Shown here: piece after piece, positions 1 through 20,735 of the stretch | Numbering within the stretch: position 1 is the stretch's first letter | How the letters are laid out: every line of letters begins with the position of its first letter | NCBI GenBank assembly: GCA_900545015.1 | Contig: UQXJ01000005.1 | Location: 2,668-66,667 of the forward strand | Length of the DNA stretch: 64,000 bases | Direction of reading: 5' to 3' | Source: an uncultured Mollicutes bacterium | GTDB lineage: Bacteria; Bacillota_I; Bacilli_A; RFN20; CAG-826 | Position numbers and translations under genes: made by a program | Notes under the pieces: model-generated | What the model was told of the DNA's origin: nothing | What the model saw: only the letters and a program-made list of their open reading frames with translations | Databases searched by the model: none

Positions 1-31
1 GCAATTAATATTGAAGCTTTCGAGGAAAAAG

Positions 32-1069
32 ATGAGAAATAGAGACGTCGTTATACCTATTTTATCAACTATTATTAGTATCCTTCTTATTTGTTCTGTT
101 GGTTCAACGCTTGCATGGTATCAATATACTAGTAATGTGTTTTCTAAATATGATGGAACAAGTATTGGTAGTTCTAAAATTTTTGATATAGGTTTAGTCA
201 GTGAAACGCGTCTTGAAGAGCCTTTAAAGCACGGATTTAAGGAAGATTCGATTAATTCTAATATCTATTGGGCAAGTAGTGGAATAAGCTCAGATATGAG
301 CGCCTATTATTCTAAAAGTAATGGTTATGCAGTTAACGAAGTTAATGGAGTAACAAGTGGAAAATACGAGACAGATGGTGAATCCTTTGTTAAAAGAGCA
401 CCATATCATAATGAAAATTATTTAGACTATTTTGGTAGACCAATAAAGGCTAATAAAAAAGATTATGTCCACTTCGACTTTGTATTTAGAATTAAAGAAG
501 TAACAAGTGATGATATTATTCAATTAAAATCAGGTAACATCTATCTTTCTAAAATTGAATTAGAAAGTACAGGTAACCTAAAACAAGCAATGAGAATCCA
601 CATGGATAATAAGCATAATAATTATATCTTTGCTCCGTTTAAAATTAATGATGGTATCGACACAGTAGGGGGGCTACTGGATTTAAACCGTGATGGGCTT
701 TATGATCATTCTCCTTATACAAGAAAAGAAATATTTTATGGTGAAAGTAATGGTGGCGTAGTATATAAAGACACCTTAACAACTGATGGATATGATTCAA
801 TTGAAGAAATAAGTGATGATTCATTTACTGGTGTACATAGAAATGGTGTATATGCAGTTGATGAAACAAAAACAGAAGCTGCTACATCTTCATATTTAGG
901 TTATGATTCAGTTTTAACTAATAAAAAAATCTTAACTACAATTGAAGAAGAAACAGGACTTGCTTATTTAAGTGTTGATATATATTTAGAAGGATGGGAT
1001 AGATCTTTTATTGATAGAGAGATGGGTTCTTATTTTTCACTTAATTTGGAGTTTGCTTTTAATGCTTAA
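32..1069 (+). CDS. Exported protein with SipW-cognate (TasA/CalY/BsaA-style) signal peptide, paralog 1
   Basis: ORF 11..1069, frame open to the window edge. GAGGA at 22-26 precedes ATG 32. N-terminus is MRNRD plus a hydrophobic helix ending GSTLAWYQY. C-terminal YLEGWD motif is shared with the next gene. sipW lies downstream in the same operon. Confidence 0.55.
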   Translation: MRNRDVVIPILSTIISILLICSVGSTLAWYQYTSNVFSKYDGTSIGSSKIFDIGLVSETRLEEPLKHGFKEDSINSNIYWASSGISSDMSAYYSKSNGYAVNEVNGVTSGKYETDGESFVKRAPYHNENYLDYFGRPIKANKKDYVHFDFVFRIKEVTSDDIIQLKSGNIYLSKIELESTGNLKQAMRIHMDNKHNNYIFAPFKINDGIDTVGGLLDLNRDGLYDHSPYTRKEIFYGESNGGVVYKDTLTTDGYDSIEEISDDSFTGVHRNGVYAVDETKTEAATSSYLGYDSVLTNKKILTTIEEETGLAYLSVDIYLEGWDRSFIDREMGSYFSLNLEFAFNA

Positions 1070-2132
1070 CATTAAGAAAACTTTTGTAATATCTTTAACT
1101 TCATTAATCGCACTTTTAGTGTCATCAATTGGCGTAACATTTGCGTGGTACGTGAGTGCAACCACTTTAAATATTGAAAATTTTAATATTTCTTTAGTAA
1201 GCGATCCAACTTTAAGTATTGGAATTAAAGATGAGAATGATGAAATTAAATATTATAAAAATGAAATTCCTAGTTCAGCTATAAAAAAGTATTACGTTGA
1301 AAAATTTAGACCTGTTAGTTCGATGTTTTGTGACTCATGGATAAATGAACATAAATCTTTTCCTACATTTAAGGATAGATACATTAATCCAAGTATTTTA
1401 AATGAAGAGACTTATAAAGAAAATAAGAACGCAACAGATGGATTCTTTCAAATTGAATTATATTTAAAAAGCGAAAGCGATATATATGTTGGTTTAAGTA
1501 AAGATACACACATTAAAGGAAATGAAAAAGCTAACCGTAAGAAAGCAAAAGAACTTATCGAACGATATAGAATATTAGATGAAGAAACAATTTATAATTC
1601 TTTAAATAATATTGATCATTCTTTAAGAATATCTCTTCTTGATAGTGATTTAGATTCATATTCTTATACAATTATTGATCCATATAAAGATAAAGATACG
1701 TATTATTCTGGTGCGCTCGATATTGATGGCAAAGGATATTATGATTCATACGCGTCTAGCGATGGAAAAAGAAAAGAATATTATTTTGGTGAATACGAAA
1801 ACGAAGATAAAATGGTATATAAATTAAATGAAGAAGATACTTCATTAAATGGATATCTATCATCATTCAATTCTCGTCACGCTAAAAATACATATATTCT
1901 TGATGAAGAAGAATCAACTAAAAATGGATTTATAAGAAAAAAAGAAAATAGTATTAGCTTAAATGAAGCTACAAAAAATGATGAATTCATTGCGTTAGTT
2001 CACGATACACCAAAACGCATTGTATTATCGCTATATATCGAAGGATGGGATTTAGATAACACAAATTACTCAGAATATGGCAGTTTTACAAGCTTATTCA
2101 AGTTTGATGTGAGAAAGGAAAATATTTTATGA
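1062..2132 (+). CDS. Exported protein with SipW-cognate signal peptide, paralog 2
   Basis: ATG 1062 overlaps the end of gene 1 (ATGCTTAA). N-terminus is MLNIKK plus a helix ending GVTFAWYVS. C-terminal YIEGWD motif. The 1011 start in the ORF track is only an overlap extension. Confidence 0.55.
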   Translation: MLNIKKTFVISLTSLIALLVSSIGVTFAWYVSATTLNIENFNISLVSDPTLSIGIKDENDEIKYYKNEIPSSAIKKYYVEKFRPVSSMFCDSWINEHKSFPTFKDRYINPSILNEETYKENKNATDGFFQIELYLKSESDIYVGLSKDTHIKGNEKANRKKAKELIERYRILDEETIYNSLNNIDHSLRISLLDSDLDSYSYTIIDPYKDKDTYYSGALDIDGKGYYDSYASSDGKRKEYYFGEYENEDKMVYKLNEEDTSLNGYLSSFNSRHAKNTYILDEEESTKNGFIRKKENSISLNEATKNDEFIALVHDTPKRIVLSLYIEGWDLDNTNYSEYGSFTSLFKFDVRKENIL

Positions 2133-3652
2133 GTGAATATTTTGAATATTTAGGTGAATTTCTTAAAAGATTTTTTCAAGATTTAGGAATCTTCTTTAAA
2201 GATGTTTTTGTTTCTCCATGGTATAAAGTCCCAGGAAATGGCGAATATTATGCTGAATTATTTAATAGATATTCTCCTTCATTTGGTGTAGGTGGTTGGA
2301 TATTTTTTGTTGTCTTTATTTTACTTTTTGGTGCTTTCATTGCTGGTTTACTTTTCTTAATTTATTTAGGATTAAGAAAATATATTCGTTTTGTTAAAAA
2401 AGAAATTGATAAAGAAAAACTTCAAGAAACAATTGAACGCTTAAATTACGAATTATTTAATACTATAAAAGAAAAAGATAAAATCTTAGCTTTAAAAGTT
2501 GGTGAACTTGGTTTTACTCCAACTGAAAAAGAAAAAGAAGAAGCTAAAGAAGTTATTGAAGAAGTTAGTTCGCGTTTTCCTAAACTTACTTATGTCGATC
2601 ATGAATACAAAGACTATAATCCTGAAATTAAAGACGTTCCAGGATTAACACTTGAAGAACTTTGTACAGCCTTTAGAAATTTTGCTGCAAGTCAACTTCA
2701 CTTATATTACACAATTGATACTATTAGACAAATGTTTGCAGGTATAGCAACAAGTAAACTTATTATTCTTGAAGGTATTTCTGGTACAGGTAAAACATCT
2801 ATGCCTTATGCATTAGGTAAATTTTTTAATTTAGATGCTAACATCTGCTCAGTCCAACCATCTTGGAAAGATAGAAGTGAATTAATTGGTTACTATAACG
2901 AATTCACAAAGAAATTTAATGAAACTGAATTCTTAAAAGCTCTATACACATCAATGTATAGAAAAGATACAAATATCATCGTCCTTGATGAAATGAACCT
3001 TGCTCGTATTGAGTATTATTTCGCTGAATTCTTATCCGTCATGGAAATGCCAAATGTAAATGAATGGAAAATCGAATTAATTAATTCTTATAGTAAAGAT
3101 GATCCAAAGAAAGTTGTTGAAGGAAAGATTTTAATTCCTCAAAATGTTGTTTTCTTTGGCACAGCTAATAACGATGACTCAACATTTACAATTAGTGATA
3201 AGGTTTATGACCGTGCTATCTCATTATTCTTTGATAATAAAGGCGTTCCATTTGATGCTGATTACCAAGAATCAATGACAATAAGTTATGAACAAATTCA
3301 TACTTTATTTGTTGAAGCTACTGAATCTTATCCAGTAAGTGATGCTTTACTTGAAAAATTTGCAAAACTTGATGACTTTGTTATTTCAAAATTCAAACTT
3401 GCTTTTGGTAACCGTATCTTAAAGCAACTTAGAACATTTATTCCAGTTTATGTTGGATGTGGTGGAACTGATTTAGATGGTTTAGATTTTATTTTCACAA
3501 ATAAGATTTTAAAGAAATTTGAATCATTAAATATCGCATTCCTTCGTGATGAACTTAAACAACTTAATACAGAACTTGATAAGCTATTTGGAAAAGGAAG
3601 CTTTAAAATGGCTCATAAATACATCGATGGCTTAATTAAGATGTCGCAATAG
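2129..3652 (+). CDS. Membrane-anchored McrB-family AAA+ NTPase (one TM helix, coiled coil, AAA_5-like core)
   Basis: ATGA start/stop overlap with the upstream gene. TM segment WIFFVVFILLFGAFIAGLLFLIYLGL. Walker A GISGTGKT. VLDEMNLARIEYYFAEFLSVME (McrB INRAN-type region). FFGTANNDDS (McrB NTAD-like). Confidence 0.65.
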   Translation: MSEYFEYLGEFLKRFFQDLGIFFKDVFVSPWYKVPGNGEYYAELFNRYSPSFGVGGWIFFVVFILLFGAFIAGLLFLIYLGLRKYIRFVKKEIDKEKLQETIERLNYELFNTIKEKDKILALKVGELGFTPTEKEKEEAKEVIEEVSSRFPKLTYVDHEYKDYNPEIKDVPGLTLEELCTAFRNFAASQLHLYYTIDTIRQMFAGIATSKLIILEGISGTGKTSMPYALGKFFNLDANICSVQPSWKDRSELIGYYNEFTKKFNETEFLKALYTSMYRKDTNIIVLDEMNLARIEYYFAEFLSVMEMPNVNEWKIELINSYSKDDPKKVVEGKILIPQNVVFFGTANNDDSTFTISDKVYDRAISLFFDNKGVPFDADYQESMTISYEQIHTLFVEATESYPVSDALLEKFAKLDDFVISKFKLAFGNRILKQLRTFIPVYVGCGGTDLDGLDFIFTNKILKKFESLNIAFLRDELKQLNTELDKLFGKGSFKMAHKYIDGLIKMSQ

Positions 3653-3654
3653 TT

Positions 3655-4197
3655 ATGAAGAAAAAATCGACTTCAAATCCACAAAAAGATTATAAAATCA
3701 TTAACGGACTAGAGAACCAACATATTATATCTAGTTTTGAAAAAGTTAATGAAAAGGTACAAAGTAGCCTTAATTCATTTGCTGAATCGGATAAAGATAC
3801 ATCTAGTGTTTTAAAATGCTTAAAAAGAGGATCAAATTCCTTTTTACGTGTTGATAGAACTGAAAATACAAACTTAGATACAAAGTGGATTAAGATGATT
3901 GAAGACGCAATTCCTTCAATTGATGAAATTATTAAAAACCCTAGAATTAATACAAAAACGGTAACTAATCTTGTTCCTGTTGAACTTGCTAAAAAAACAG
4001 GTAGTGAATCAATTCAACATCTTTCAACACACTCTCAATTTGTTAAAGAAATTGATAAAAATGGAAATGTCATTCCTAGTAAAATTTTAAATATTGAAAA
4101 CGAAGACAATTACATTACTTACGAAAATAAATTTATTGCTACTTTGATTCGTAGATTATTACTTTTCGTTGAAAAACGTTATGAATATATTACATAA
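3655..4197 (+). CDS. Hypothetical protein in the McrC-partner position (N-terminal part; same frame as the next ORF)
   Basis: Starts 2 nt after the AAA+ gene stop. ITYENKFIATLIRRL is reminiscent of the xENRF motif I recall from McrC/DUF2357-type partners (weak). Ends at a single TAA at 4195-4197 that is in frame with ORF 4225..5640. Confidence 0.35.
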   Translation: MKKKSTSNPQKDYKIINGLENQHIISSFEKVNEKVQSSLNSFAESDKDTSSVLKCLKRGSNSFLRVDRTENTNLDTKWIKMIEDAIPSIDEIIKNPRINTKTVTNLVPVELAKKTGSESIQHLSTHSQFVKEIDKNGNVIPSKILNIENEDNYITYENKFIATLIRRLLLFVEKRYEYIT

Positions 4198-4224
4198 TAT
4201 TCACCTTTAAAGGACTATCAAATA

Positions 4225-5640
4225 ATGCTTATTAAAAATAGATGCGTTATTAATGGTGTTGAATATCAAATTGAATCAAAAGTTGTCGCTAGTAAAGTTA
4301 GTGAAAACACAACAGGTGGCAAAATGAGTAGTGCAGAATTTTTAAAGAAAGTTAATCTTATTCGTAAATACTGCAAATATTTCTATTCATCTCCTTTTAT
4401 GAGAATGTTTAAAAATGAAAAGAATGTAAGAAGTCCAATTATTCAAACTAACATTATTAGAAAAAATCCTAAATACAGAAAATGTTACGAACTTTATCGT
4501 TTTATTGAACGCTACAATAAATTAGGTGTCAATTTCGTTATTAAAGAAGACTTTAAAAAAGTCGATGAGAGCGATTATAACGATATTTATAACTTAGAGC
4601 TAATGAACGTCTTAGCTTTAAAAGGAACGGATGCAAAATATCCAATTAAGTCAAAATCTAAAATTAAAAAACCAAAAATCGAAAATACAATTGACGATGA
4701 TGTTTTCACTTTCTTCCCACTTGGTGAAGATCCTGAATTTATTAGAATTGATGATGCATATTTGAATTATAGAAAGAACAACACTGAAGGTTTAAAACGT
4801 AAGCCTCAAAAACCAGAAAGACAATTTGCAATTGGAAATTATCTTAAAAAAGGTCGTGTTGATCGTGATGAAGAACGTAGAAAAGAGCTTTTAAAACGTA
4901 AAAAAGAAGAAGAAAAGAATTTCTTAAAAGAACAAAAAGAACTCGCAATTCTCAAAGAAAAAGAAAGAATTAAAGCTGAAACTGAAGCTCAAATGGCAGA
5001 AGAAAAAGCAAAACTTGCTGAACTTAATAAAGCTAGAGCAATTCTTAAAGAAAAAGCTTCAGAACATCTTGAAGAGAATGAAAAAATCTTTGTTCAATAT
5101 GAGCAAGATAAACTTAGCGAATCTACATTTGAAGCAATTAAAGAAACTGCAAATATTTCTACTCCTTTAGAAAATGAAAACATTATTTTAGATGCTTTAA
5201 AGGATGAAAACGAAAATCAAAATGTTGATGAAGAAATTGTAGATTCTTCAGAAATTAAAGAAGAAGAAAATGCTTTGGATGATGTTAATTTATCTAAAGA
5301 AGAAAGCAGCGGTGATGCACTTTTACTTGATGATGAATTTTTAAACGAAATTCAAAAAGACATCAATGAAGAAGAAAAACTTTATCAAATTGAAATTGAA
5401 GATGTTGATAAAAATTCATTATTTAAAAGTGGTGAATATTTTGAAAATAAACTATTAGGAAATGACGAGGCACCACTTAATGAAAATAATAATGAAGAAA
5501 GCAAAGAAGAATCTTCTAATTCTATAAATGAAGAAGAAAATACAACAGAAAATACAACAAATACCGAAGAAGAAATCGTTCAAGATAACGAAGTAGAAAT
5601 TAAAGATGAAAACGATGAAAAGAAGACTAAATATCTTTAA
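4225..5640 (+). CDS. Coiled-coil protein with a long acidic E/N/D-rich tail (possible C-terminal part of the McrC-like partner)
   Basis: Same frame as 3655..4197. AAAGGA sits about 10 nt upstream of ATG 4225. E/K heptad-like stretch RKELLKRKKEEEKNFLKEQKELAILKEKERIKAETEAQMAEEKAKLAELNKARAILKEK. No PD-(D/E)xK motif seen. Confidence 0.4.
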   Translation: MLIKNRCVINGVEYQIESKVVASKVSENTTGGKMSSAEFLKKVNLIRKYCKYFYSSPFMRMFKNEKNVRSPIIQTNIIRKNPKYRKCYELYRFIERYNKLGVNFVIKEDFKKVDESDYNDIYNLELMNVLALKGTDAKYPIKSKSKIKKPKIENTIDDDVFTFFPLGEDPEFIRIDDAYLNYRKNNTEGLKRKPQKPERQFAIGNYLKKGRVDRDEERRKELLKRKKEEEKNFLKEQKELAILKEKERIKAETEAQMAEEKAKLAELNKARAILKEKASEHLEENEKIFVQYEQDKLSESTFEAIKETANISTPLENENIILDALKDENENQNVDEEIVDSSEIKEEENALDDVNLSKEESSGDALLLDDEFLNEIQKDINEEEKLYQIEIEDVDKNSLFKSGEYFENKLLGNDEAPLNENNNEESKEESSNSINEEENTTENTTNTEEEIVQDNEVEIKDENDEKKTKYL

Positions 5641-5652
5641 TAAAAGGTGAAA

Positions 5653-6417
5653 ATGGGTAAAGTTAAAAAACAAAATATAGAAGAAATTAAAGTTAAAAAA
5701 CCATTGTGGAAAAGAATTACAAATGGAATTTTAACAGGACTTGTTGTTCTTATAATTGGAGCTATTGCTACTTTTGGAATAGCTTCTTTAACTAGCGATA
5801 AAAAAGCAAATTATGGTGTAAATGTTATATTTAATCATGCAATGCTAGTTGTTTTAACTGATTCAATGGATCCTGATTATCCAGTAGGTTCAGCAATATT
5901 TATTGAAAAAACTGATCCAAAAGATATAAAAATTGGTGATGATTTATCTTTTTATTATGATTCAATTGGAATGGTTATAACACATAGAGTAAGCGAAATA
6001 AAAACACCTTCTGAATCAAATTCACATTATACTTTTACGTTACATGGAATTAACACACATTCAACTCAATGTGGAAGTGAAGATAATCCAGAGGATTGCA
6101 CTTATCAAACACAAACTGTAACTGAAGATAAAGTAATTGGAAAAGTTATTGGAAGTAGTATTACACTTGGTAAAATTTATAACTTTATGGTAACACCAGC
6201 TGGACTTTTAATATTACTTTTGATTCCTGGTTCATATTTAATTTTTGTATCGCTTAAAACTATTGTTAAAACATTAAAAGAAGATGAAAATAAAGATGTG
6301 AAAGTCGTTTCAAGTTCTTCGACGACACTTGATTCATTAAGTGAAGAAGATAAAGAAAGATTAAAACAAGATTTATTAAATGAATTATTAGAAGAGAAAG
6401 GCAAAAAAGATGAGTAG
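5653..6417 (+). CDS. sipW: Signal peptidase I, ER/archaeal S26B type (SipW)
   Basis: N-terminal TM helix. Ser box LTDSMDPDYP. His box GMVITHRVSEI. C-terminal TM helix plus acidic tail. An alternative GTG start lies at 5647. Confidence 0.75.
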   Translation: MGKVKKQNIEEIKVKKPLWKRITNGILTGLVVLIIGAIATFGIASLTSDKKANYGVNVIFNHAMLVVLTDSMDPDYPVGSAIFIEKTDPKDIKIGDDLSFYYDSIGMVITHRVSEIKTPSESNSHYTFTLHGINTHSTQCGSEDNPEDCTYQTQTVTEDKVIGKVIGSSITLGKIYNFMVTPAGLLILLLIPGSYLIFVSLKTIVKTLKEDENKDVKVVSSSSTTLDSLSEEDKERLKQDLLNELLEEKGKKDE

Positions 6418-7935: not shown

Positions 7936-8688
7936 ATGATTTTAATTTTAGGTTCAACTCATGATGATGTTTTATATTATGAAACTCAATTAAAAAATAA
8001 AGAAGATAGAAATCTAGGTAAAAATGTTAAACTCATTTTTGGTGAAATTTATAATCAAAAAGTCCTTTTAGCTTATAATGTTAAAGGAAATTATATGAGT
8101 AGTGCAGTAACTTCATATTTAATTGCTAAGCACGATATTATTATGGTTTTTGTTGTTGGAACTTGCTTTGCTTATAGCGATGGAATTAGAAAAGGTGACA
8201 TTGCAATGTGCGATACGCTTTTACTAAGTGACGTTGATTTATCTTTAACTAATAAAGTTAGAATTGGTGAAATTCCTGGCTTTAATAAAGTTTATGCTTC
8301 AAATAGACATTTCTTTGAAAAATCAAATGAATTTGCTAAAAACTTTGTTATTAGCAATATAATTCCAGCAACTTTTGTGTCTTCAAATAGCGAATATCGC
8401 TCTATCGATGAAATTGCTGAAAAAAACGATAGAAGAACCGTTTTAGGTGCTAGTAAAAATTTAGTTTATGATTCTTCAACTGGTGGAAGTGCATTTAGTT
8501 GTGCATTATTTGATATTCCATTTTTATCTTTTAAAGTTGTTTTAGGAAAAATAAAAAATAAAGTAACGACAGAAGAAAAGATTGTTGCTTTAAAAGAATA
8601 CGCTGATATAGGAAAAGTTATTACAGCTGTAATTGGTGAAATTGGTCGTAACGATACAATCAGTGTTAATACATTAATTGATGACTAA
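7936..8688 (+). CDS. PNP_UDP_1 / MTA-SAH nucleosidase-like protein, apparently degenerate
   Basis: Starts 2 nt after the EAL gene stop. Overall MtnN-like layout (MILILGSTHDDV..., VFVVGTCFAY, GGSAFSCALFDIPFLSFKVV), but the canonical GIGK and GSAGG boxes are not conserved. Confidence 0.45.
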   Translation: MILILGSTHDDVLYYETQLKNKEDRNLGKNVKLIFGEIYNQKVLLAYNVKGNYMSSAVTSYLIAKHDIIMVFVVGTCFAYSDGIRKGDIAMCDTLLLSDVDLSLTNKVRIGEIPGFNKVYASNRHFFEKSNEFAKNFVISNIIPATFVSSNSEYRSIDEIAEKNDRRTVLGASKNLVYDSSTGGSAFSCALFDIPFLSFKVVLGKIKNKVTTEEKIVALKEYADIGKVITAVIGEIGRNDTISVNTLIDD

Positions 8689-8749: not shown

Positions 8750-10540
8750 ATGGGTGCTAAGAAACCAGAATTAATTTTTTTATCGATGACCTTTTTGATT
8801 TCAAATGGTCTTTTTTCTTGTAGTAAACCAATACAAGAAATAGATGAAAGTGTCAATGAAATTAAGATTGTATGTAATGAATCAAAAATGAAATATATTG
8901 GTGATTTCATTGATGAATTTAAAACTCAAAATCCACAATATAAATTAATTATTGATTTTGAACCTGATGAAAAAATTGAATATTATATAAATCATGATCA
9001 AATTGATGCTGATATTGTTTTAGCAAATGAATTATTAACAATTAATGGAACGGATGATAAATTTGTTGATATATCGCGTAATGAATATACAAACGAATTT
9101 GGTAAAAATGCTCTCGTTCATTTAAAGACTTTAGCTGGAAAGATTTATGCTCTCCCTTCACCTGGAATTTTACTTACTTATTGTGTTAACGAGACACTTT
9201 TTGATTATTATAATTTTACAGTTCCAACAACAATTAATGAACTTATTGATTTTGTTCGTTATTCAAAACAATTTGCGATTCCTTATGTTTCATCATTTAC
9301 TGAAAACGATGCTTTTCTTGATGTTTTAATGCAAGCAACAATACCTTCATTTTATTCAACACCAATTGGCTATAAATATTTTAATGATGTATATTATGGG
9401 GAACATAGTGTCACAACTTTATCGTCATTAAATCAATTTTATGAATCTTTATATAACTTTTACGAGCTTTTTAGAGAAAAATACTTTGATCCAACTAAAA
9501 TCAGTGATAAAGGAATTGATGATTTTTTTAGTGGAAAAGCATTCATGACATCTTTAGCATCAACGATGGAATTTCAAAACAAATATAAAGAAAAGAAATC
9601 TGATTTTAAATATAGATTCATCCCTTATCTAGGAACAAGTGCTGATTCAAATTGGGCTTTAACACGACCAAATTTTTATATTGGAACGTTAAAGAAAAAT
9701 TATGAAAAGAAAAAAGAAGCGCTTGATGCTTTCAATGCTTATTTTTCAAGCTACAAAGGACAAAAAACATTAGTAAATTATTCAAGCGATAGCATAATCA
9801 CCCCACTCATCAGCTATAGAACTGATTTAAATAAAAAACTTAGTTCAAATTTTGAGGATGTAACTAATGCAATTAGTGAAGGACGATTATATTTTTTTGA
9901 TAAATTTTATTCATTAGCTTCTATAAATGTTGAAGATTATAAAAGCTATGCAAAAGATTTAATTTCAACAAATACGCTTATAGAACGTATTAATAAATCA
10001 GTTGATGATCTTATAGCTCGCATTGATTATAACTATATAATTCCTGAATTAATTTTACCTAGTGATGAAAGTTCAAACGAAAGAAAAAAGAACTTAATTA
10101 AGTCAATAAATGGTATTTTTATAAAATACCTTGGTGTTAATGCTTCTGTTTTGCCCTTCGATTTCTTAAAATATGAAATTTTTGATGGTACTTTTTCTAA
10201 AAAAGAAATGGAAATCATTTTTGATAAAGACGTTACAGTTATAGTGGCTAAATTAAAAGGTGAGAAATTAAAATCTATATGTGAAACTATCTTTTTCTCA
10301 AAAGATTTTAGTTATGATTTTTCAGGAGTATCATGTTTTAATGATGATAATGGATATAAATTTTTATTCAATAACAAGAAAGAAATTGATGATGATAAAG
10401 AATATCTATTACTTGTTCCAGATGGATTTTTAGATGATGATATTGAAGTTATATCGAAAAGCGAAAAATTTTCATGTTATGACCTTTTAAAAAGAATCTT
10501 AAAGGAAAATTTTCCTTCAAAAGCGGAGGAAGAAATATGA
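8750..10540 (+). CDS. Lipoprotein with an N-terminal extracellular solute-binding-protein-like domain
   Basis: Signal peptide with lipobox LFSC. The N-terminal region resembles family-1 SBPs (IKIVCNESKMKYIGDFIDEFKTQNPQYKLIIDFEPDEK...DADIVLAN). No adjacent ABC permease or ATPase. No clear RBS at 8750, so the start is uncertain. Confidence 0.5.
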   Translation: MGAKKPELIFLSMTFLISNGLFSCSKPIQEIDESVNEIKIVCNESKMKYIGDFIDEFKTQNPQYKLIIDFEPDEKIEYYINHDQIDADIVLANELLTINGTDDKFVDISRNEYTNEFGKNALVHLKTLAGKIYALPSPGILLTYCVNETLFDYYNFTVPTTINELIDFVRYSKQFAIPYVSSFTENDAFLDVLMQATIPSFYSTPIGYKYFNDVYYGEHSVTTLSSLNQFYESLYNFYELFREKYFDPTKISDKGIDDFFSGKAFMTSLASTMEFQNKYKEKKSDFKYRFIPYLGTSADSNWALTRPNFYIGTLKKNYEKKKEALDAFNAYFSSYKGQKTLVNYSSDSIITPLISYRTDLNKKLSSNFEDVTNAISEGRLYFFDKFYSLASINVEDYKSYAKDLISTNTLIERINKSVDDLIARIDYNYIIPELILPSDESSNERKKNLIKSINGIFIKYLGVNASVLPFDFLKYEIFDGTFSKKEMEIIFDKDVTVIVAKLKGEKLKSICETIFFSKDFSYDFSGVSCFNDDNGYKFLFNNKKEIDDDKEYLLLVPDGFLDDDIEVISKSEKFSCYDLLKRILKENFPSKAEEEI

Positions 10541-13500
10541 AAAAAATAAATTTATTTATTTTAAGCTCTGCTTTAATTATAGCTCCTTTAACAAGTTGCA
10601 AAACTGATGATAACAAAGGTAAAGAAACACATTTTCCAGTGAAAGATTTTGAATTAATTGGTTTTGATTCAAATAAACCTTATACAGTTGGTGAAATCAT
10701 CGATTTCACTAAAATGTCTTTACTTATAACTCGTAATGATGAATCAACTGAAACTATTAAAGCATTTAGCAATGACGTAACGATTAAAGGTGCATCAACT
10801 GAAGCTCCTGGATCCTTTACTTTTGAGATTACTTTTGAAAATAAAACAAATAATTATCGATATAGCGTTATTCAAAATTATGTAACTCTTGATTTTAATG
10901 GAGGAACTTTCGAAGACAAAAAAAGAAATAAAACTTCCTTTATATAATAATCAAGTCGATCTTTCTAAATATAGTCCAGAATTAACATGTGATGATGAAA
11001 AATCTTATAAATTTTCAGGTTGGTATTACGATAAAGAAAACACAAAAAGAGCAACTTATTTAATTGATAAAAATTTTATATCTTATGACAATACAACTCT
11101 TTATGCAGGATACGATTTAGATTATTCTGATGAATTTATCTATTCAATTAATGAAAGAGAAGGAACATGTGAACTTATATCGCCAAATTTTGATAATCCT
11201 TTTAATTTGGTTTCGACTGATACCCTTTATATTCCTAAAACTATTGAAGGTTATAAAGTAACATCGATTGCTGATGATTTTCTTGCTAAAAAAACGATTG
11301 ATGAAACTACTGGAGATGTTAGTTTTTCGGATTATGCCTGGCTAGCCAATTATAGAAAAATTGTTTTTCCTAGCGATTCATATGTTCAAACGATTGGAGC
11401 AAGATGTTTTAAAGGAGTTGTGACGCTTGTTAGCATTGAATTACCTAATTCTTTATTAACAATAGGAAAGGAAGCGTTTAGTGAAACTAAGCTTAATGGA
11501 ACTTTAACATTACCAAGTTCACTTAGAAAAATAGGTGAAAGTGCGTTTAGCTATGGAACTGGTAATTTATTAAAAGTTGAATTTAATGAAAATAGTGCAA
11601 TTAAAGTTATTGGAGAAAATGCTTTTCAAAATAATTTAAGTTTACATGAAGTTGAGCTTCCTAAAGGACTTGAAGAAATTAGAGAAGGAGCTTTTTCTAA
11701 TTGTAGAGATATTATTAATTTAAATTTGCCTTCGAGTTTATCAATTGTTGGAGTAAATGCTTTTAAATTAATGGATGGATTAAAAAATATAAATGTAGAT
11801 AAAGACAATCCTTTCTTTACAAGTTTAGATGGAAATTTATTTGATAAAAACATGACAAAATTAATTAAATATTGTTATGGAGAAAACGAAAAAGAATATA
11901 CTTTACCTAAATCAACTTTATACATAGATGATTCAGCTTTTAATGTTTTTGACTCTTTTATTTCACTTCAAAAATTAAATTTAAATGAAGGTTTAATTTA
12001 TATAGGAAGTGATGCGTTTAATGGTTGTACTTTTGAGTTTACTATTCCAAGTTCACTTAGAAATTTTGCTATTAATGCATTTAATGGATATAAGGGAACT
12101 TCATATAAAGTTGATGCGAAAAATAAATACTATTCTTGTGTTGATGGCTTACTTTGTTCAAAAAGTGGAAGAACTTTATATTCAGTTCCTGGAAATTACG
12201 ATACAAGGTTTTTTATTCTTAATGAAAATGTCGAAACGATTGGCGAATATGCGTTTTTTAATAACCAAAAAATTACTTTTATCAGAGTTCCTGAAGATAG
12301 TAAGTTAAGCGTGATTAAAAAGAACGCAATGATTTTAACATCTTTTAAAAATCTTAGATTAATTGAATTTAAAATTGAAAAGATGTTTACGATTTCTCGC
12401 GATTCATTTATCGCTCCTAATACAACATTTCACAAAAGTGTAATACCAATTATTTTTTATGATGAATACGTTAAAAAAGCATTTGAACAAAGATTTTATC
12501 GTAATGTAGAAGACGCTCAAAGCAAAGAAAATCAAACACTTTTATTAATGAATGATGAAATAAAAGAAAATGCATTGAAATATTTATATAAATCGACAGG
12601 TTTATCAAAACTTGAAGATTATAAAAAAGGAATAATGCCTCGATTAAATAAAGCAATTAATTTTGGTGAAGATGATTTTAAACTTGCTTCAACTTTATTA
12701 ATGTATATGTATCGAAATGGGTTCTATGAAAGTGACGAAATTCAATATTATAAATTGATTGAAAAGAATATTTTGAGCTCATTATATTATGCTGAAAAAG
12801 AAAATAGTAATACTATTAATCCGTTTGCAAATTATAATTTTTATCATGCTAGAACTGAAGTATATCCAAATGAATTTAAAGAAGATTTATTACCTTTAAT
12901 TAATAAAATAGATGCTTATTACAAAGGATTTGAAGTAGATTTAGATATAAATGCGATAAGTGCTTTGATAATGGATTTTGATATCTCTCAAAACAATTTT
13001 AATAATGAAGAAGCAAAAAAATTACTTAAAAGACTAGAAGAATTACGCATTGAAAGTAGGTCATTAGGCGAACAAGTTTATATTAGATATAATGCAATAA
13101 AGGCGTCTTCTTTAATTTACGAATGTTTAGAACATAATAAATTTAATGATGAAGATATGCTTTTTTTAGAAAGCAAGATTGAAGATAATTCAACTAATAA
13201 TTATTATGGCATAAGAAGTTATTTAAATGGTTGGTTTAATAATGAATTTAGGCAATCAATTCTTTATAAATTTGATGAATTTAAAACGCTTTTAGATGAG
13301 TATGATGCTAAAAAAGAAACGTTTAAAAATAACTTAATAAATAATGTTAATAACTTCGATTATTCTATCTTTGATGAAGCAAAATTTAATACTTTTTATG
13401 ATAAAAATGTTAGTCATTTATTAAATGAGCATTATTATGATTTATCAAGCGAAGAAAGAGCGATTTGCTATACGATAATTTCAATGATTAATATTAATGA

Positions 13501-14092
13501 TTTTCTTAATGATAATGAAAAAATTAGTGATGATAATTTTATTTTGAAATATGAAAAAATTAATGAAATTGATAATTTATTAAGTGAGGTGAGTGTTAAT
13601 TCAAGTATTGATTATGAAGCAATTATCGAATCAAATTTCCCTACGTATATTACAAAAAAAGATGAAGTAATTAATTACAAAAACACTTTTGTCGATGAAC
13701 TAAAAAATGAAATTATTAACTTTGAAATTAATAAAGAAAATTTAAAGAATAAATATAATCTTTTAATAGAAAAAATCAAAAAACTTGGAAGTTTTTCATC
13801 AGATTGTTTACGCGATGATAATGATATATTTATCAATAAATATTATATTATCCAAGCATCTTTTATTATCTATAATTTAATTGAAAATTATCCTAATAAA
13901 ACAAAAGAAAATTATAACGAAATTAGAGATTATCTTTATGATCATATTGATTTTGATTCGTGTACATTTATAAATGGAAAAGTAGGAATAATTAACGATT
14001 TTTTAACTCATTTGAATAATGACACTTCATCAATTTATGAGTATGATAAATATGTTGAATATATAGACTTTATAGAACAGGGGTTAAACTAG
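10537..14092 (+). pseudogene. Surface lipoprotein with Listeria-Bacteroides repeat and BspA-type leucine-rich repeats, split by a frameshift in an A7 tract
   Basis: ORF 10537..10947 has a signal peptide with lipobox LTSC. ORF 10889..14092 (TTG, no signal peptide) continues the same domain. Reading ...VTLDFNGGTFEDKK then, skipping one A, EIKLPLYNNQVDLSKYSPELTCDDEKSYKFSGWYYD reconstitutes a Listeria-Bacteroides repeat. Downstream are LRR_5-type repeats (IGARCFKG, IGKEAFSE, IGESAFSY, IGENAFQN, IREGAFSN). Confidence 0.65.
10918..10924 (+). repeat. A7 homopolymer at the frameshift junction of the LRR lipoprotein gene
   Basis: Counted directly: gac-aaaaaaa-gaa. Removing one A (A6), or adding two, fuses frames 10537 and 10889. 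Confidence 0.9.
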
Positions 14093-14093
14093 T

Positions 14094-17000
14094 TTGGAAG
14101 AGGGCAGATTAATTTTTACTATTCAAAATGATACTCATAAAGTTATAAGTATCAATCTTGATGAACTTCGTGTTCCGATATCTTTTGAAGAATATTTTAA
14201 TCAATATATTAGTAAAGATATTCTTTTTATTTTAGATGAAAATTATAATGAAAATACTATTTTAAATTTTATCCTTAATGAACGTGAATTCGGAACTATT
14301 ACATTTAATGGAAATAATAATGAATATGTTTATAAATTCACTTTATATAGTAGAAATGAATCTAAAACAACAATTACAATTGATCGATATTATTCAGCAA
14401 AAAATGTTGAAGTAACTTATGACTTTTTAACAGGAGTTTATTCAAGAAATTATTTAGTTTCTGAAATTCAAAAGCAACTTGATAAAGGATATAATTTTAA
14501 TTCTTATATTATAATTATTGACCTTGATAATTATAAACAAATTAATGATACATTTGGTCACCTCGTTGGTGATTTATGCTTAAAGAAAATTGTATCTGAC
14601 GTTAAACTTGTTTTTAAAAATCATTTAGTTGGAAGATATGGTGGAGATGAATTTTTAATTTATGTTAAAGATGTAACGCTTGATGAACTTCACGCTTTAA
14701 TTGAAGAAGCATTAAAAATTGAATTTAAATATACAAAAGGAATTAAATCAAGTGATGCTGTTACAATTTCTATAGGTATTAGTAAAGAAATAGGAAATAG
14801 AGAAAATTTAGATGAACTTGTAGAAGAAGCTGATGAAGCTTTATATAAATGTAAAAGACTAGGAAAAAACCTTGGATCTTTTTATAAAGGCAAAATTTAT
14901 GTCGGTCCAAAGAACAATAAAGCACTTAGAAAAAAGACAAGAATTTCATCTTCTTACACCTTTAAAGAAGAAATTAGAAGAAAAAAAGTCTTGTTTTACA
15001 CGCTTTTTATAAGTTTATCTGCATTTTTTGTTGTTTTATCTTTAACTATTAACATTGTTTATAATCTTAACATTAGTAGTCAAGCAGACTCAATTGCAAG
15101 CTCCTTAATGTATCAGCAAAGTAGTGATGTTGCTGATAAAACAAAAAAAGAAATTGAATATGTTTATGCTCGACTTTATAGTGCAACAAGGATTATGGAA
15201 AACATAGAAGCTTCAACACTTGATGAGTTTTATAGTTCAGCAATTACAAAAACTGAAGAATTTGTGGACATAAATCACGCTGGATTAATTTTAAATAATG
15301 GCAATGCGTATTATAAATACAAAGATGAACTTAGACTTTATAATTTAACAAATAAAGCGATTAATACGATTGAAAACCTTAATAATAAAATAGCTTGTGC
15401 AGAAAGAGTTCAATTTGCTGATCAAGATGTTATTATGATTTCTACTCCTTATGACAAAGAAGTTTCTTTTGGTAGTAACAAAGCAAGTATCTCAGGAATT
15501 TTTTGTTATTATAGTATTGAAGAAGCAAGACATAATATTTTTGATTCTTTACGAGTCGATACGACAAAGTATTTATCGATTATTACAAGTGATGGGAGTA
15601 AAATCCTTGATACACAAGTGACTAATGATTTATCTATTTTTCAAGATTTAACAAATGTTTTAAATGTTTATAAAAATGATAAAAATCAATACGAAAAATT
15701 TGTTAACTACATTGATAATGATTCTTCAAAAGTTGAATTATTTGATATTAATAGAAGAAAATATTATTTCTTTATAAAAGATATTGAAAAAGTTGAAAAT
15801 TGGAAGATTTTATATGTTGTTTCTTATAGTGACATTCTTTTTTATATTGGGAATTTGGTTAGGCTTTCTGAAGTTTCTATGCTCACTGTTAGCGTTACAA
15901 CAATTGTGTTAGTTTTATTCGTTTTATCTTTATTTTATAGGATAAAAATGAAAAGTTTTATTGCTAAATTTGTTGACCCACTTACAGGTATAATAAACGA
16001 ACATAGATTTGTAATTGATGCAAAAGAAGCAATTAAAAAACGTCCAGGTGATTGGTATATTATTTATATAAATATCGCTCATTTTAAATTTATTAATAAT
16101 CAAATTGGTTCAAATAAAACTGATGCTCTTATTAAAGATATTGCACTTTATTTATCAAAAAATATTAAAGAAAACGAGATGGTATCACGTGAATTTAATG
16201 ATAGATTTATGCTTTTACTTAAATGTGAAACACTTGGAATATGTAAAGAAAGAATATCGAAACTTCTTGATGTTTTAACTGATGAAATACCTTCTAAATA
16301 TGATGTAAAACTTATAATGAGTGCTGGTATTTATAATTTTGAAAATCAAGATGAAACGACGTATCTTGCAATTGATAAAGCTCGTATAGCTGCTGAATCT
16401 GTTTATATAGGAAGAAAACCATATTATTTATGTGTTTTTGATACTGAAATGGAACAAAAAAGTGAAATGGATAATTATATTGAGCAAGCTAAAGAATTTG
16501 CTTTGCAAAACAACAAATTTAAAGTCTATTATCAAGGAATTTATGATCCTAAAATTAAAGAATTTATTGGATGTGAAGCTTTAGTACGTTGGAAAGATGA
16601 TAAATATGGATTTATTAATACTCAATATTTTATTGATCTTTTTGAAAACAATGGATTTATCTTAAAACTTGATTTATTTGTTTTTGAAACTGTTTTAAAA
16701 GATTTAAGTGAAAGAATTAATAGAAATGAAAAAGTCATTCCTATTTCAGTTAATTTATCAAGAAGACATTTCCATATTGATAATTTCCTTGATGAGTATG
16801 AAGAACTCATGAATAAATATAATGTTGATGGTAAATATCTTGATTTTGAAATTACTGAATCTGTTATTTTAAATGAACGTATTAATTTAGAAAACATCAT
16901 TGCAAAAATTCATAGCTTTGGATCGACTGTGTCAATTGATGATTTTGGATGTGGTTTTTCAAATCTTAGTATGATTAATAAAGTTGACTTTGATTATTTA

Positions 17001-17243
17001 AAACTCGATAAAAAACTATTTGTTGGTAAAAGCTATTTTGATGACAATAGTAAACGAATCCTTGAGATGGTTTGTAAACTTATTAAATCACTTGGAAAGA
17101 AAACAATTTGTGAAGGTGTTGAAAGTAAAAAACAAGTAACTTTCTTAAAATCAATTGGTTGCGATTACATCCAAGGCTATTATTATTCTAAGCCTTGCGA
17201 AAAAGAAGAATTTGCTAAACAATTTGAAGAAAATAAAAAATAA
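14094..17243 (+). CDS. Bifunctional c-di-GMP enzyme: N-domain - GGDEF (intact) - TM - extracytoplasmic sensor - TM - GGDEF-like (degenerate) - EAL (intact)
   Basis: TTG start 1 nt after the upstream stop, with AGGGG about 11 nt upstream. First GGDEF domain: DFLTGVYSRNY, DLDNYKQINDTFGHLVGD, RYGGDEFLIY. Second domain has FNDRF in place of GGDEF. EAL motifs: GCEALVRW, SVNLS, EITES, DDFGCGFSN, KLDKKLF, CEGVES, QGYYYSKP. Confidence 0.8.
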   Translation: MEEGRLIFTIQNDTHKVISINLDELRVPISFEEYFNQYISKDILFILDENYNENTILNFILNEREFGTITFNGNNNEYVYKFTLYSRNESKTTITIDRYYSAKNVEVTYDFLTGVYSRNYLVSEIQKQLDKGYNFNSYIIIIDLDNYKQINDTFGHLVGDLCLKKIVSDVKLVFKNHLVGRYGGDEFLIYVKDVTLDELHALIEEALKIEFKYTKGIKSSDAVTISIGISKEIGNRENLDELVEEADEALYKCKRLGKNLGSFYKGKIYVGPKNNKALRKKTRISSSYTFKEEIRRKKVLFYTLFISLSAFFVVLSLTINIVYNLNISSQADSIASSLMYQQSSDVADKTKKEIEYVYARLYSATRIMENIEASTLDEFYSSAITKTEEFVDINHAGLILNNGNAYYKYKDELRLYNLTNKAINTIENLNNKIACAERVQFADQDVIMISTPYDKEVSFGSNKASISGIFCYYSIEEARHNIFDSLRVDTTKYLSIITSDGSKILDTQVTNDLSIFQDLTNVLNVYKNDKNQYEKFVNYIDNDSSKVELFDINRRKYYFFIKDIEKVENWKILYVVSYSDILFYIGNLVRLSEVSMLTVSVTTIVLVLFVLSLFYRIKMKSFIAKFVDPLTGIINEHRFVIDAKEAIKKRPGDWYIIYINIAHFKFINNQIGSNKTDALIKDIALYLSKNIKENEMVSREFNDRFMLLLKCETLGICKERISKLLDVLTDEIPSKYDVKLIMSAGIYNFENQDETTYLAIDKARIAAESVYIGRKPYYLCVFDTEMEQKSEMDNYIEQAKEFALQNNKFKVYYQGIYDPKIKEFIGCEALVRWKDDKYGFINTQYFIDLFENNGFILKLDLFVFETVLKDLSERINRNEKVIPISVNLSRRHFHIDNFLDEYEELMNKYNVDGKYLDFEITESVILNERINLENIIAKIHSFGSTVSIDDFGCGFSNLSMINKVDFDYLKLDKKLFVGKSYFDDNSKRILEMVCKLIKSLGKKTICEGVESKKQVTFLKSIGCDYIQGYYYSKPCEKEEFAKQFEENKK

Positions 17244-17511: not shown

Positions 17512-17590
17512 TCTCCTGAAAAAGGCAAAACTAAAGTGATTTAGTGACGCAAAACTATAGGGTCTTCAATAGACAGCCAGTTACCATAAT
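17512..17590 (+). promoter_or_regulatory. Candidate c-di-GMP-I (GEMM-I) riboswitch
   Basis: GGCAAAA (17524-17530). Hairpin CUAAA-GUGA-UUUAG (17531-17544) with a GNRA loop. GACGCAAA (17546-17553). Hairpin CUAU...AUAG (17555-17572). ACAGCCAGUUACC (17573-17585). TATAAT at 17505-17510 just upstream. Lies in a 423-nt intergenic region before ATG 17667. Confidence 0.65.
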
Positions 17591-17666
17591 TTTGAATAAT
17601 TATTTATTAAATTTATCGTTTTATTTTGCTATAAAACTGATCTTGGACGATTCAAAGGGGAAAATT

Positions 17667-20600: not shown

Positions 20601-20735
20601 AAAGAACAACTTGAAGTTATTAAAGATAACCATGATGTAGATTATTTACAAGGCTATTATTTCTATAAACCACTCGAGGAGAATGACTTCTTATCTTTAG
20701 TAAAAACGATGCTTTTAAAAATACCTTTAAATTAA
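17667..20735 (+). CDS. Membrane protein with degenerate GGDEF-like and degenerate EAL domains (candidate c-di-GMP receptor)
   Basis: AAGGGG RBS before ATG 17667; the GTG 17544 extension overlaps the riboswitch. Two N-terminal TM helices. YSDDT replaces GGDEF. EAL region: GGEVLLRL, SINLD, ELNEED, VCDQYTG (for DDFGTG), KLSRD, IVGVE (for EGVE), QGYYFYKP. Cys cluster CYEAIYGLKKPCENCP. Confidence 0.7.
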   Translation: MKRKREKSLVNYLKLRIVILSLLTIVLFGLEIFFGVSYFTNGQDKITLICFILATIVTILLAAYLIYCSVTITRIIYKDIYLKSLSNYDEIAHFKYDFKKYNLTKIREFKVLNEKLDHIEESYKGVLICEPSKTYDDFEFSYIKDFENHKVIQFVDFKKNIQKLINLSRTYRNVFVSFKFIKESDVEVKNDNLIRFIELLEETFKNNSPLISFDSSNQSFYMYLPNIDLISILKDKLNYAVTNFFIADYKMKTEVTHLKASAVIYPYTAGEDILSHLKYAERKGNDVNIYIPEFNSVNSDNNNLYSEKVAKLNKVFDLISSKKMIKSNSQNYIEKITNGIKNVTDLLGFDIGGIATKNFDDETITLRKTYANDPSKNDYFKTDIFNSDFVNTLRNKCDDDSTYVFYDAVDTPHELKETFDLYGIKSGYLYLFYNEGALVGIIFFFNFDKPCVIDNYSRGAILYCCSMIGNILNGYGNMVSVNHYMKNLENVLSLSNIKEYTVNKTNYRLYAVSNELKTYKKNVKQGDICYEAIYGLKKPCENCPLNKLKRKIVTIDDINYAYHTSNIKESKNFISIYLLPVAETSTIMCKQRIDPILLLNTTYSLVEELNNKFAMKSKGYLLLVRIENKDEILEKVGEDGFRDILINISDNIKENNFGESRVYLYSDDTLGLILNEVGRNEIFKIGEKISSFIDAATLNIDNLKINSTQFFYQYPLTYPTAYDFFRNVELSINNEPRRIDNLLILKDENITRPMNKEAYILDLLNTSFNKHSFDIRILPIIKKETKSLYGGEVLLRLKDTLTGDFFSAYEFIDVAIKNDMMHLFTNLIIEQIGKLYKQYGQTVFRSNCLDRISINLDSSYFNSYTFVDDIAELLKVYNFNKDFLSFELNEEDIYNHYELIKGVTKKLKGYYIKFVCDQYTGKFLSFEKLSKIGFEEIKLSRDIVNDIDSNALKLNEANILINEAHNFNMKVTIVGVERKEQLEVIKDNHDVDYLQGYYFYKPLEENDFLSLVKTMLLKIPLN

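Follow-up and report, generated by a model that had tools for sequence, protein, structure and literature searches.

The operon and its relatives

The stretch of DNA analysed here, 64,000 nucleotides of contig UQXJ01000005.1 from an uncultured Mollicutes bacterium (hereafter the window), is AT-rich, with a G+C content of ca. 27%, and begins with an operon in which two genes for exported proteins are followed by genes for a McrB-like AAA+ GTPase, a McrC-like partner and a SipW-type signal peptidase, and then by an EAL-domain phosphodiesterase of cyclic di-GMP (c-di-GMP) and a nucleosidase-like protein. A comparison with related loci supports the conclusion that the McrB-like/McrC-like pair is an integral and conserved part of a locus made up of sipW and its putative substrate genes, and not a chance neighbour of them. 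The window locus is a member of CoCoPALM, a kind of system that has been named but is uncharacterised. The window proteins are closest to those of Candidatus Onthovivens and of other metagenome-assembled genomes (MAGs) of gut Bacilli.

Coordinates are window positions, and L-numbers designate the related loci that were fetched. One of these, L084, which represents the same genome context as the window, is an identical locus on a 96-kb human-gut assembly contig, and it shows three further operon genes upstream of those lying whole in the window. Between positions 1 and 8688 every long open reading frame (ORF) is on the + strand, with ends that overlap or abut. The features are the following:

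Upstream of the window (seen in L084): 309-aa exported protein with signal ...TGTVAWFTAN
Upstream of the window (L084:2850-3236): small protein of ~128 aa with two transmembrane (TM) helices
1..42, +: 3' end of the gene for an upstream 276-aa signal-anchored paralogue of the products of genes 1 and 2, C-terminal YTVVFWLEGSDPEC, with the rest of the gene outside the window
32..1069, +: gene 1, exported protein, 345 aa from ATG 32 (352 aa if from TTG 11)
1062..2132, +: gene 2, paralogous exported protein, 356 aa
2129..3652, +: McrB-like AAA+ GTPase, 507 aa
3655..5640, +: McrC-like partner with a DUF2357 N-domain, interrupted in this strain
4195..4197, +: in-frame TAA nonsense codon (K181 to stop), which splits the partner into 180-aa and 471-aa ORFs
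5653..6417, +: SipW-type (endoplasmic reticulum/archaeal, S26B) signal peptidase, 254 aa
6410..7933, +: membrane EAL-domain c-di-GMP phosphodiesterase (Pfam EAL, E 5e-70)
7936..8688, +: PNP_UDP_1 gene (methylthioadenosine/S-adenosylhomocysteine-nucleosidase-like), kept after the EAL gene in the Bacilli branch
14094..17243, +: GGDEF-EAL protein, 1049 aa (motifs visible in the translation, hidden Markov model (HMM) match, synteny)

The junctions of the operon are translationally coupled. The gene for the 276-aa protein overlaps the start of gene 1 (in L084), ATG 1062 of gene 2 lies inside the final codons of gene 1 (stop at 1067-1069), gene 2 and the GTPase gene share an ATGA overlap at 2129-2132, and 2 nt (3653-3654) separate the GTPase gene from the partner gene, which runs from 3655. 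Further downstream, ATG 6410 of the EAL gene overlaps the sipW stop (6415-6417), and another 2-nt gap precedes the nucleosidase gene at 7936. On re-reading the sequence, we found the ORF calls and the junctions at 1062, 2129-2132, 3655 and 6410 as an earlier annotation, made from the letters alone (the sequence-only reading), had given them. Its extent of the operon, 11-6417, has to be corrected, since the real block starts upstream of the window and runs on through the EAL and PNP_UDP_1 genes to 8688. Positions 1-42 of the window read ...AINIEAFEEKDEK followed by a stop, and equal the end of L084:3558-4388. Judged from the sequence, the more likely starts of gene 1 and sipW are ATG 32 and ATG 5653, the latter being preceded by the ribosome-binding site AAAGGTGA. 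Directly upstream of the operon L084 contains a PycTM-domain gene (Pycsar-type effector; L084:1-399) and an opposite-strand gene of 219 aa (L084:556-1215, -).

Relatives of the GTPase are present in at least 599 species-level genomes of the GTDB set, and the family comprises 741 clusters at 50% identity (E <= 1e-30), many of whose members have 600-870 aa and longer N-termini. We fetched 80 loci from ca. 80 species-level genomes, both of Bacilli (MAGs labelled RFN20/Erysipelotrichaceae, Acholeplasmatales, Anaeroplasmataceae and Izemoplasmatales) and of Clostridia (Oscillospiraceae, Ruminococcus and Lachnospiraceae), and the counts that follow refer to subsets of them (n=40, 61, 62 or 63). The GTPase gene was directly followed by the partner gene in 58 of 62 loci. 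The partner gene was directly followed by sipW in 52 of 63, with sipW located downstream in 58 of 63, and a second sipW lay directly upstream of the GTPase gene in 36 of 61. Genes for motif-bearing substrates, described below, were present in 35 of 40 loci and EAL genes adjoined the system in 37 of 40. It is because sipW, the substrate genes and the EAL genes accompany the pair at these frequencies that we consider it integral to the locus. The link of the pair to sipW and substrate genes, proposed in the sequence-only reading, is thus supported by the neighbourhood survey, in which the pair was not seen to occur independently of sipW. The parts are syntenic across Bacilli, Mollicute-like lineages and Clostridia, with one SipW or, in other lineages, two. 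Five loci (L010, L015, L018, L033 and L079) are Firmicute-type low-GC operons in bins labelled Bacteroides uniformis, Paludibacteraceae, Hallerella or Bacteroidales, labels that probably represent binning or label errors in public MAGs.

The GTPase, its partner and the signal peptidase

The GTPase is composed of a conserved N-terminal segment of ~55 aa, one TM helix (residues 60-78), a heptad or coiled-coil region (~86-125), in or near which L98, L105, L109, I119 and L122 are invariant among the aligned homologs, and an AAA+ core with the motifs GISGTGKTS, VLDEMNLAR and GTANNDDS. A profile of 15 homologs searched against the PDB matched E. coli McrB alone (E 7e-5), and hhalign aligned the GTPase with E. 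coli McrB over 239 columns with a probability of 95.4 (E 1.7e-8), which bears out the view of this 507-aa protein as having a McrB-type core; its single TM helix makes the pair membrane-linked, as had been suspected. The GTANNDDS motif (N347 N348 D349 D350 S351) is invariant. Taken as N-x-D-D, it has one residue fewer than GLMNTADRS and fits the shortened N-x-D-(D/E) form reported for this branch of GTPases, but the alignments by HMM and hhalign, which contain no gap, permit N-x-x-D as well. Pfam scans of the N-terminal 190 residues found no DNA-binding family, and homology of the N-terminus to FtsB/DivIC was not detected with Pfam. This is the most conserved gene of the operon, with 86% and 65% identity to two relatives as compared with 31-72% for the other genes, and its conservation, much higher than that of the exported proteins, is as expected for an internal machine with surface-exposed subunits. 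In a related Bacilli MAG a second, paralogous pair of McrB-like (910 aa) and partner-like (522 aa) proteins is encoded a few kb upstream of the main locus (L001:13-2984).

The TM helix and coiled coil, found in place of a nucleic-acid-binding N-domain, argue against an anti-phage or conflict system, in which a membrane McrBC-derived sensor would act with SipW and the secreted or membrane proteins as effectors of, for example, surface remodelling or abortive infection. Such a system would fit the ancestry of the pair in type IV restriction, a strong match of the GTPase core to a defence candidate of PADLOC, the presence of the PycTM gene a few kb upstream in the same genome, and the prediction, in the passages on them in Bell et al. 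(eLife 2024, PMC11090510), that the sister CoCoNuT systems serve in defence. We consider it improbable, since no nuclease or other effector domain was found and the locus shows stable synteny, a vertical-looking conservation across orders and housekeeping-like neighbours (the EAL and nucleosidase genes). Defence islands, on the other hand, are typically patchy.

The 180-aa and 471-aa ORFs downstream of the GTPase gene share one frame and are separated by a single TAA (4195-4197). They had been described as a partner of 180 + 471 aa with a coiled coil and an acidic tail in the McrC position; the position, coiled coil and tail were confirmed, but the two pieces are one gene cut by a nonsense codon. 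An intact variant (P0145, 665 aa, 41 member sequences) is 96% identical to the 471-aa product and reads ...EYITKYSPL..., with Lys at the place of the stop codon, and in every relative the partner is a single protein, of 430-2247 aa. The exact 180-aa product was called on five other contigs, so that the split is a real nonsense allele of one gene and a sequencing error can be ruled out. An alternative genetic code or readthrough is ruled out as well, since TGA is a stop elsewhere and the conspecific allele has Lys. Because of this mutation the module of the sequenced strain may be impaired or work as two fragments.

The AlphaFold2 (AF2) model of intact P0145 has a folded domain (~22-330), a single helix of ~100 residues (393-493) and a disordered acidic tail, and the nonsense codon interrupts the folded part at a point between a helix and a hairpin. 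The Pfam family DUF2357, which represents the N-terminal domain of McrC, matched the partner with 27.4 bits (gathering score 23.3). In a test made after removal of the charged tails, with which the match is unclear, it matched all five partner N-domains taken from Bacilli, Acholeplasmatales-like and Clostridia loci, four of them above the cut-off. The comparison with E. coli McrC by hhalign (probability 0.35) and the search of PDB sequences with the partner profile gave no detectable similarity, so that the kinship of the partner rests on DUF2357. A Foldseek search of the PDB with the full-length model returned noise alone and did not recover McrC, the long helix and disordered tail probably spoiling the search. 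As to nucleases, no such family was matched by Pfam in 49 partner homologs, and the model has no globular domain beyond ~330, where helix and disordered tail follow. These results agree with the earlier description of the partner as nuclease-less; an intact nuclease in homologs, which had been named beforehand as an argument against the reading, was not seen in the 49. A degenerate nuclease fold might conceivably lie within residues 186-330.

The assignment of the next gene to the SipW type is upheld by a match to TIGR02228 (60.0 bits, cut-off 51.85) and by the presence of a Ser box (TDSMDP) and a His box (ITHRV) in a protein with N- and C-terminal TM helices; the SipW equivalog NF046067 was matched with an E of 7e-18, below the equivalog cut-off. 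Ser and His are invariant in the 109 aligned SipWs of the loci. The Asp position, which is located 19 residues after the His (22 in the window protein), is D in 86 of the 109 and I, T or V throughout the window clade: in the window SipW the G-D-N box reads HGIN, with Ile (residue 133) at this position. The Asp-less clade is the clade with a single SipW per locus, and it also has a Cys-containing insertion after the box. The triad of Bacillus subtilis SipW is S47/H87/D106, with D106 being essential (reviewed in PMC8767453). The Asp-less enzymes may be active as a dyad or with another acid.

Nearly all SipWs of the loci, across lineages, have after the C-terminal TM helix a cytoplasmic tail with a conserved amphipathic motif (...EDKERLKxELLxE...), which in the window protein is LSEEDKERLKQDLLNELLEEK. 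In B. subtilis SipW the C-terminal 20 residues, which are cytoplasmic, have a separate biofilm function (PMC8767453). The small protein with two TM helices (121-167 aa; L084:2850-3236, L001:6310-6675 and L004:1104-1487) has a tail, DLSAEDKAKLKAQLMKELL, that matches the SipW tail motif, and resembles SipW minus the peptidase domain. The ORFs of 121-167 aa were rejected as SipW, their HMM match reflecting the shared TM and tail without a peptidase domain.

It might also be that the operon is a decaying remnant that no longer works as a system in this strain, the partner having a nonsense mutation and SipW lacking its catalytic Asp. The location of the K181 stop, within the folded part formed by DUF2357, the HGIN that SipW has instead of G-D-N, and a possible frameshift in a nearby adhesin gene (see below) can be read in this way. 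However, all other genes are intact and tightly coupled, the nonsense allele recurs on five contigs, and the C-terminal fragment of the partner keeps an ATG with AAGGA upstream. Moreover, the whole clade shares the replacement of the Asp but keeps Ser and His without exception, which argues that SipW is still under selection. Decay is, in our view, very unlikely.

The exported proteins

Genes 1 and 2 encode diverged paralogs, as had been recognised from their motifs, with 27% identity over 177 aa in BLASTP (E 2e-6). The signal of the gene 1 product (hydrophobic segment at residues 6-24) ends in GSTLAWY and that of the gene 2 product in GVTFAWY, and the C-terminal motifs are YLEGWD and YIEGWD, respectively, just as previously noticed. 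Both proteins belong to a large, fast-evolving exported family marked by T-x-A-W-(F/Y), which closes the N-terminal hydrophobic helix, and by (Y/W)(L/I/V)EG(W/E)D near the C-terminus. Within the first 90 aa, [ST]x[AS]W[FY] was present in 124 of 172 family ORFs of the fetched loci versus 18 of 1071 other ORFs, and the first motif can therefore be considered specific to proteins of the locus. Most of the 18 are in fact further signal-bearing proteins of the same loci, and some are adhesins of 1156-1441 aa.

Each locus encodes 1-4 small paralogous subunits. The 276-aa signal-anchored paralogue, a homolog of which is kept in Clostridia (L083:8348-9178), is a candidate for a fibre base or anchor. 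Very large motif-bearing proteins are encoded directly after the second sipW in Clostridia loci (L049:17855-21490, L042:9152-12619, L053:7407-11729 and L058:14053-17763). The first of them, the single adhesin scanned against Pfam, carries BspA-type leucine-rich repeats (LRRs). The large T-x-A-W-(F/Y) LRR proteins are possible tip adhesins.

No Pfam or NCBIfam model matches the substrates as a family. Among 130 members, Peptidase_M73 (PF12389) was matched by two (E at least 0.0099), the SipW-cognate signal model TIGR04088 by one and TIGR04090 by one or two, all below threshold, and the family profile gave zero matches to PDB sequences. With TasA (reference sequence 100% identical to PDB 8aur, the mature chain beginning at A28 after GGGTWA), hhalign aligned the signal peptide alone, in the register T-x-A/x-F = T-W-A/A-F (E 0.0018), so that the likeness to TasA is confined to the signal. 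The AF2 model of the gene 2 product (predicted local distance difference test score, pLDDT, 82.4; predicted template modelling score, pTM, 0.80) is beta-rich, with residues 1-48 unstructured (pLDDT < 50). The ~20 residues that directly follow the motif (28-48) do not pack against the rest of the monomer in this model, and hydrophobic residues alternate along them. A Foldseek search of the PDB with this model found nothing significant: TasA was absent among the matches listed, and ranks 2 and 3 were taken by the archaeal donor-strand filaments 7pnb and 7ueg (AbpA), with non-significant E values of ~0.5. Of the earlier idea of TasA-type substrates, the register of the signal peptide can be retained but not the mature fold, and the gene 2 model does not bear out the expectation that genes 1 and 2 would model as TasA/BsaA-like folds. 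As far as the sequences indicate, the substrate signal is SipW-cognate-like and the mature domain has no demonstrable TasA/camelysin membership.

The T-x-A-W-F proteins could, rather than forming a fibre, be a surface coat, adhesins or enzymes that SipW releases or anchors, the GTPase pair being a nucleotide-dependent switch on their processing or expression and no motor, a situation that would matter most in wall-less Mollicute-like hosts. The lack of a significant fold match to known pilins is consistent with this explanation, as are the large LRR adhesins among the substrates, the regulatory role of the B. subtilis SipW cytoplasmic tail (PMC8767453), the tight linkage of c-di-GMP regulators and the tolerance of the nonsense allele of the partner. 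We nevertheless hold it to be rather unlikely, because the sets of 1-4 small paralogues with a conserved unpacked N-terminal strand, together with an anchored paralogue, resemble major and minor pilin sets, and because a GTPase conserved to such an extreme degree points to a constraint that is mechanical or structural.

Kinship and proposed function

Bell et al. (PMC11090510) reported a large clade in which the McrB-like GTPase is joined to a TM and coiled-coil domain of FtsB-like type, and gave the name CoCoPALM to such McrBC homologs linked to signal peptidases. In the main text of that paper CoCoPALM is treated in three sentences, without characterisation and with the analysis deferred to a later paper, and a link to pilus assembly is proposed there independently of our work. 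The supplementary text has no entries on CoCoPALM, and a literature search found no later papers on it; for SipW with McrB, or TasA-like proteins with AAA+, the literature returned one E. coli genotype string alone. The novelty that the sequence-only reading had seen in an AAA+ pair next to a signal peptidase is thus overtaken by the CoCoPALM description. We base membership of the window locus on four of the five features stated there: a McrB-like GTPase domain, the architecture in which an N-terminal TM helix and a coiled coil precede it, a neighbouring McrC homolog that itself carries a coiled coil (DUF2357, helix 393-493, adjacency in 58 of 62 loci), and associated genes of the signal-peptidase family (sipW after the partner in 52 of 63 loci and before the GTPase in 36 of 61). 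The fifth is a shortened NxD variant of the NxxD GTPase signature, usually followed by D or E, for which GTANNDDS allows both the short and the long reading. The hosts are likewise Bacillota. Our results add to the CoCoPALM passages of that text the identity of the peptidases as SipW (S26B), which often occur in two copies on either side of the pair, the T-x-A-W-(F/Y) substrate family with its motifs and anchored paralogue, and the conserved SipW cytoplasmic tail, the c-di-GMP linkage and the Asp-less SipW clade. A further addition is the nonsense allele that occurs naturally in the partner gene.

A comparison with other systems shows what is shared and what is changed. E. coli McrBC has in common with the present pair the homologous AAA+ GTPase core (hhalign 95.4), a DUF2357 partner and the gene order B then C, but here a TM helix and coiled coil replace the DNA-binding N-domain, the partner has no detected PD-(D/E)xK nuclease and no profile similarity to E. 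coli McrC, and the context is export and c-di-GMP instead of restriction-modification. The CoCoNuT proteins CnuB and CnuC share the GTPase branch, according to the relevant passages of Bell et al., coiled coils on both proteins and McrC homologs often without an active nuclease; in contrast, they are cytosolic, with HEPN or other nucleases, RNA-binding domains and a predicted role in defence, whereas Pfam found no such domain here.

The operons tapA-sipW-tasA of B. subtilis, sipW-calY of B. cereus and sipW-bsaA of Clostridium perfringens also encode a dedicated SipW of the endoplasmic reticulum type together with its substrates, and the resemblance extends to a signal of the TasA register (T-x-A/x-F), several paralogous substrates, an accessory or anchor-like protein and a link to biofilm-type regulation. 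In the system studied here, however, the mature domains have no detectable Peptidase_M73/TasA or BsaA membership, SipW has a long conserved cytoplasmic tail, and the window clade has no equivalent of D106. To our knowledge, none of those three operons contains a nucleoside triphosphatase (NTPase). With type IV pili and type II secretion there is an analogy, in that a cytoplasmic hexameric NTPase, a dedicated signal peptidase and membrane-embedded pilin precursors would be coupled across the membrane, but no homology: the NTPase is McrB-like here and PilB-like there, the peptidase is SipW-type in the former and the aspartyl peptidase PilD in the latter, and the signal motif differs.

Considering these results together, we favour, with a probability of roughly 0.55, a c-di-GMP-associated system of the CoCoPALM type in which Sec-exported subunits are assembled into a surface fibre or a structure resembling a pilus, with the GTPase complex controlling or powering their processing or assembly. 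The subunits would be exported by Sec and held in the membrane by the signal helix until SipW cleaves after the Ala of T-x-A, as happens in TasA after GGTWA. Through donor-strand exchange, the N-terminal amphipathic strand freed in this way could assemble the subunits into a polymer on the membrane-anchored paralogue, and LRR adhesins that carry the same signal might be incorporated in some lineages. At the cytoplasmic face, a GTPase hexamer, held at the membrane by its six TM helices and with the DUF2357 partner as its plug, would dock the conserved amphipathic tails of SipW through the coiled coils, and GTP hydrolysis would gate processing by SipW or drive subunits out of the membrane.

Several points weigh against a fibre-building system. 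Cleavage and polymerisation of the substrates are assumed, and their mature domains did not significantly match TasA or any solved pilin in sequence or in fold. The docking of SipW tails is conjecture, and a cytoplasmic AAA+ protein has no obvious way to power an extracellular assembly. In the window clade, the sole SipW of the loci has no Asp at the position of D106, a residue essential in the B. subtilis enzyme. The match of the GTPase core to PADLOC candidate PDC-M26A has an E of 1.7e-38. The strain with the truncated partner persists in several assemblies, so that the pair would be dispensable at least in some settings.

A more specific proposal, which we put forward tentatively and hold to be somewhat unlikely, is that the GTPase and its nuclease-less McrC plug are the engine or gate of an unrecognised class of filaments of Gram-positive bacteria and Mollicutes, distinct from sortase, type IV and chaperone-usher pili, and that they time cleavage and donor-strand polymerisation of the T-x-A-W-F subunits from the cytoplasm through the SipW tails; this would be the first exaptation of a restriction-enzyme motor for extracellular fibre biogenesis. 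If the fibre-building function is true, a DNA-restriction motor has been rebuilt as part of a machine for the assembly or control of surface fibres, and there would be a new route of pilus or matrix-fibre biogenesis linked to c-di-GMP signalling. It would also provide a concrete function for the part of SipW that extends into the cytoplasm, a known but unexplained contributor to biofilms in B. subtilis. The hosts are gut and rumen Firmicutes and their wall-less relatives, which are abundant in humans and livestock and hardly studied. The question is testable, since a cultured carrier (Ruminococcus sp. FC2018, L083) and a natural nonsense allele of the partner exist.

The region downstream of the operon adds to its association with c-di-GMP. 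In related Bacilli loci an EAL protein of ~1000 aa closes the conserved block, and the 1049-aa GGDEF-EAL protein is its counterpart here. A c-di-GMP-I riboswitch (RF01051; 63.1 bits, gathering score 35) is located 9 kb downstream of the operon, at 17514-17588 (+), directly upstream of and overlapping the start of a 1063-aa ORF (17544-20735) with a degenerate EAL-like C-terminus. The c-di-GMP enzymes of the operon and this riboswitch point to biofilm-type control. Between the operon and the GGDEF-EAL gene, a 136-aa ORF with a lipoprotein signal (10537-10947) and a signal-less 1067-aa ORF with BspA-type LRRs (10889-14092) overlap in different frames. The overlap (10889-10947) sits around an A-rich homopolymer (poly-A at ~10917-10925), and the two ORFs (10537-14092) may represent one gene for a surface adhesin that is frameshifted or phase-variable.

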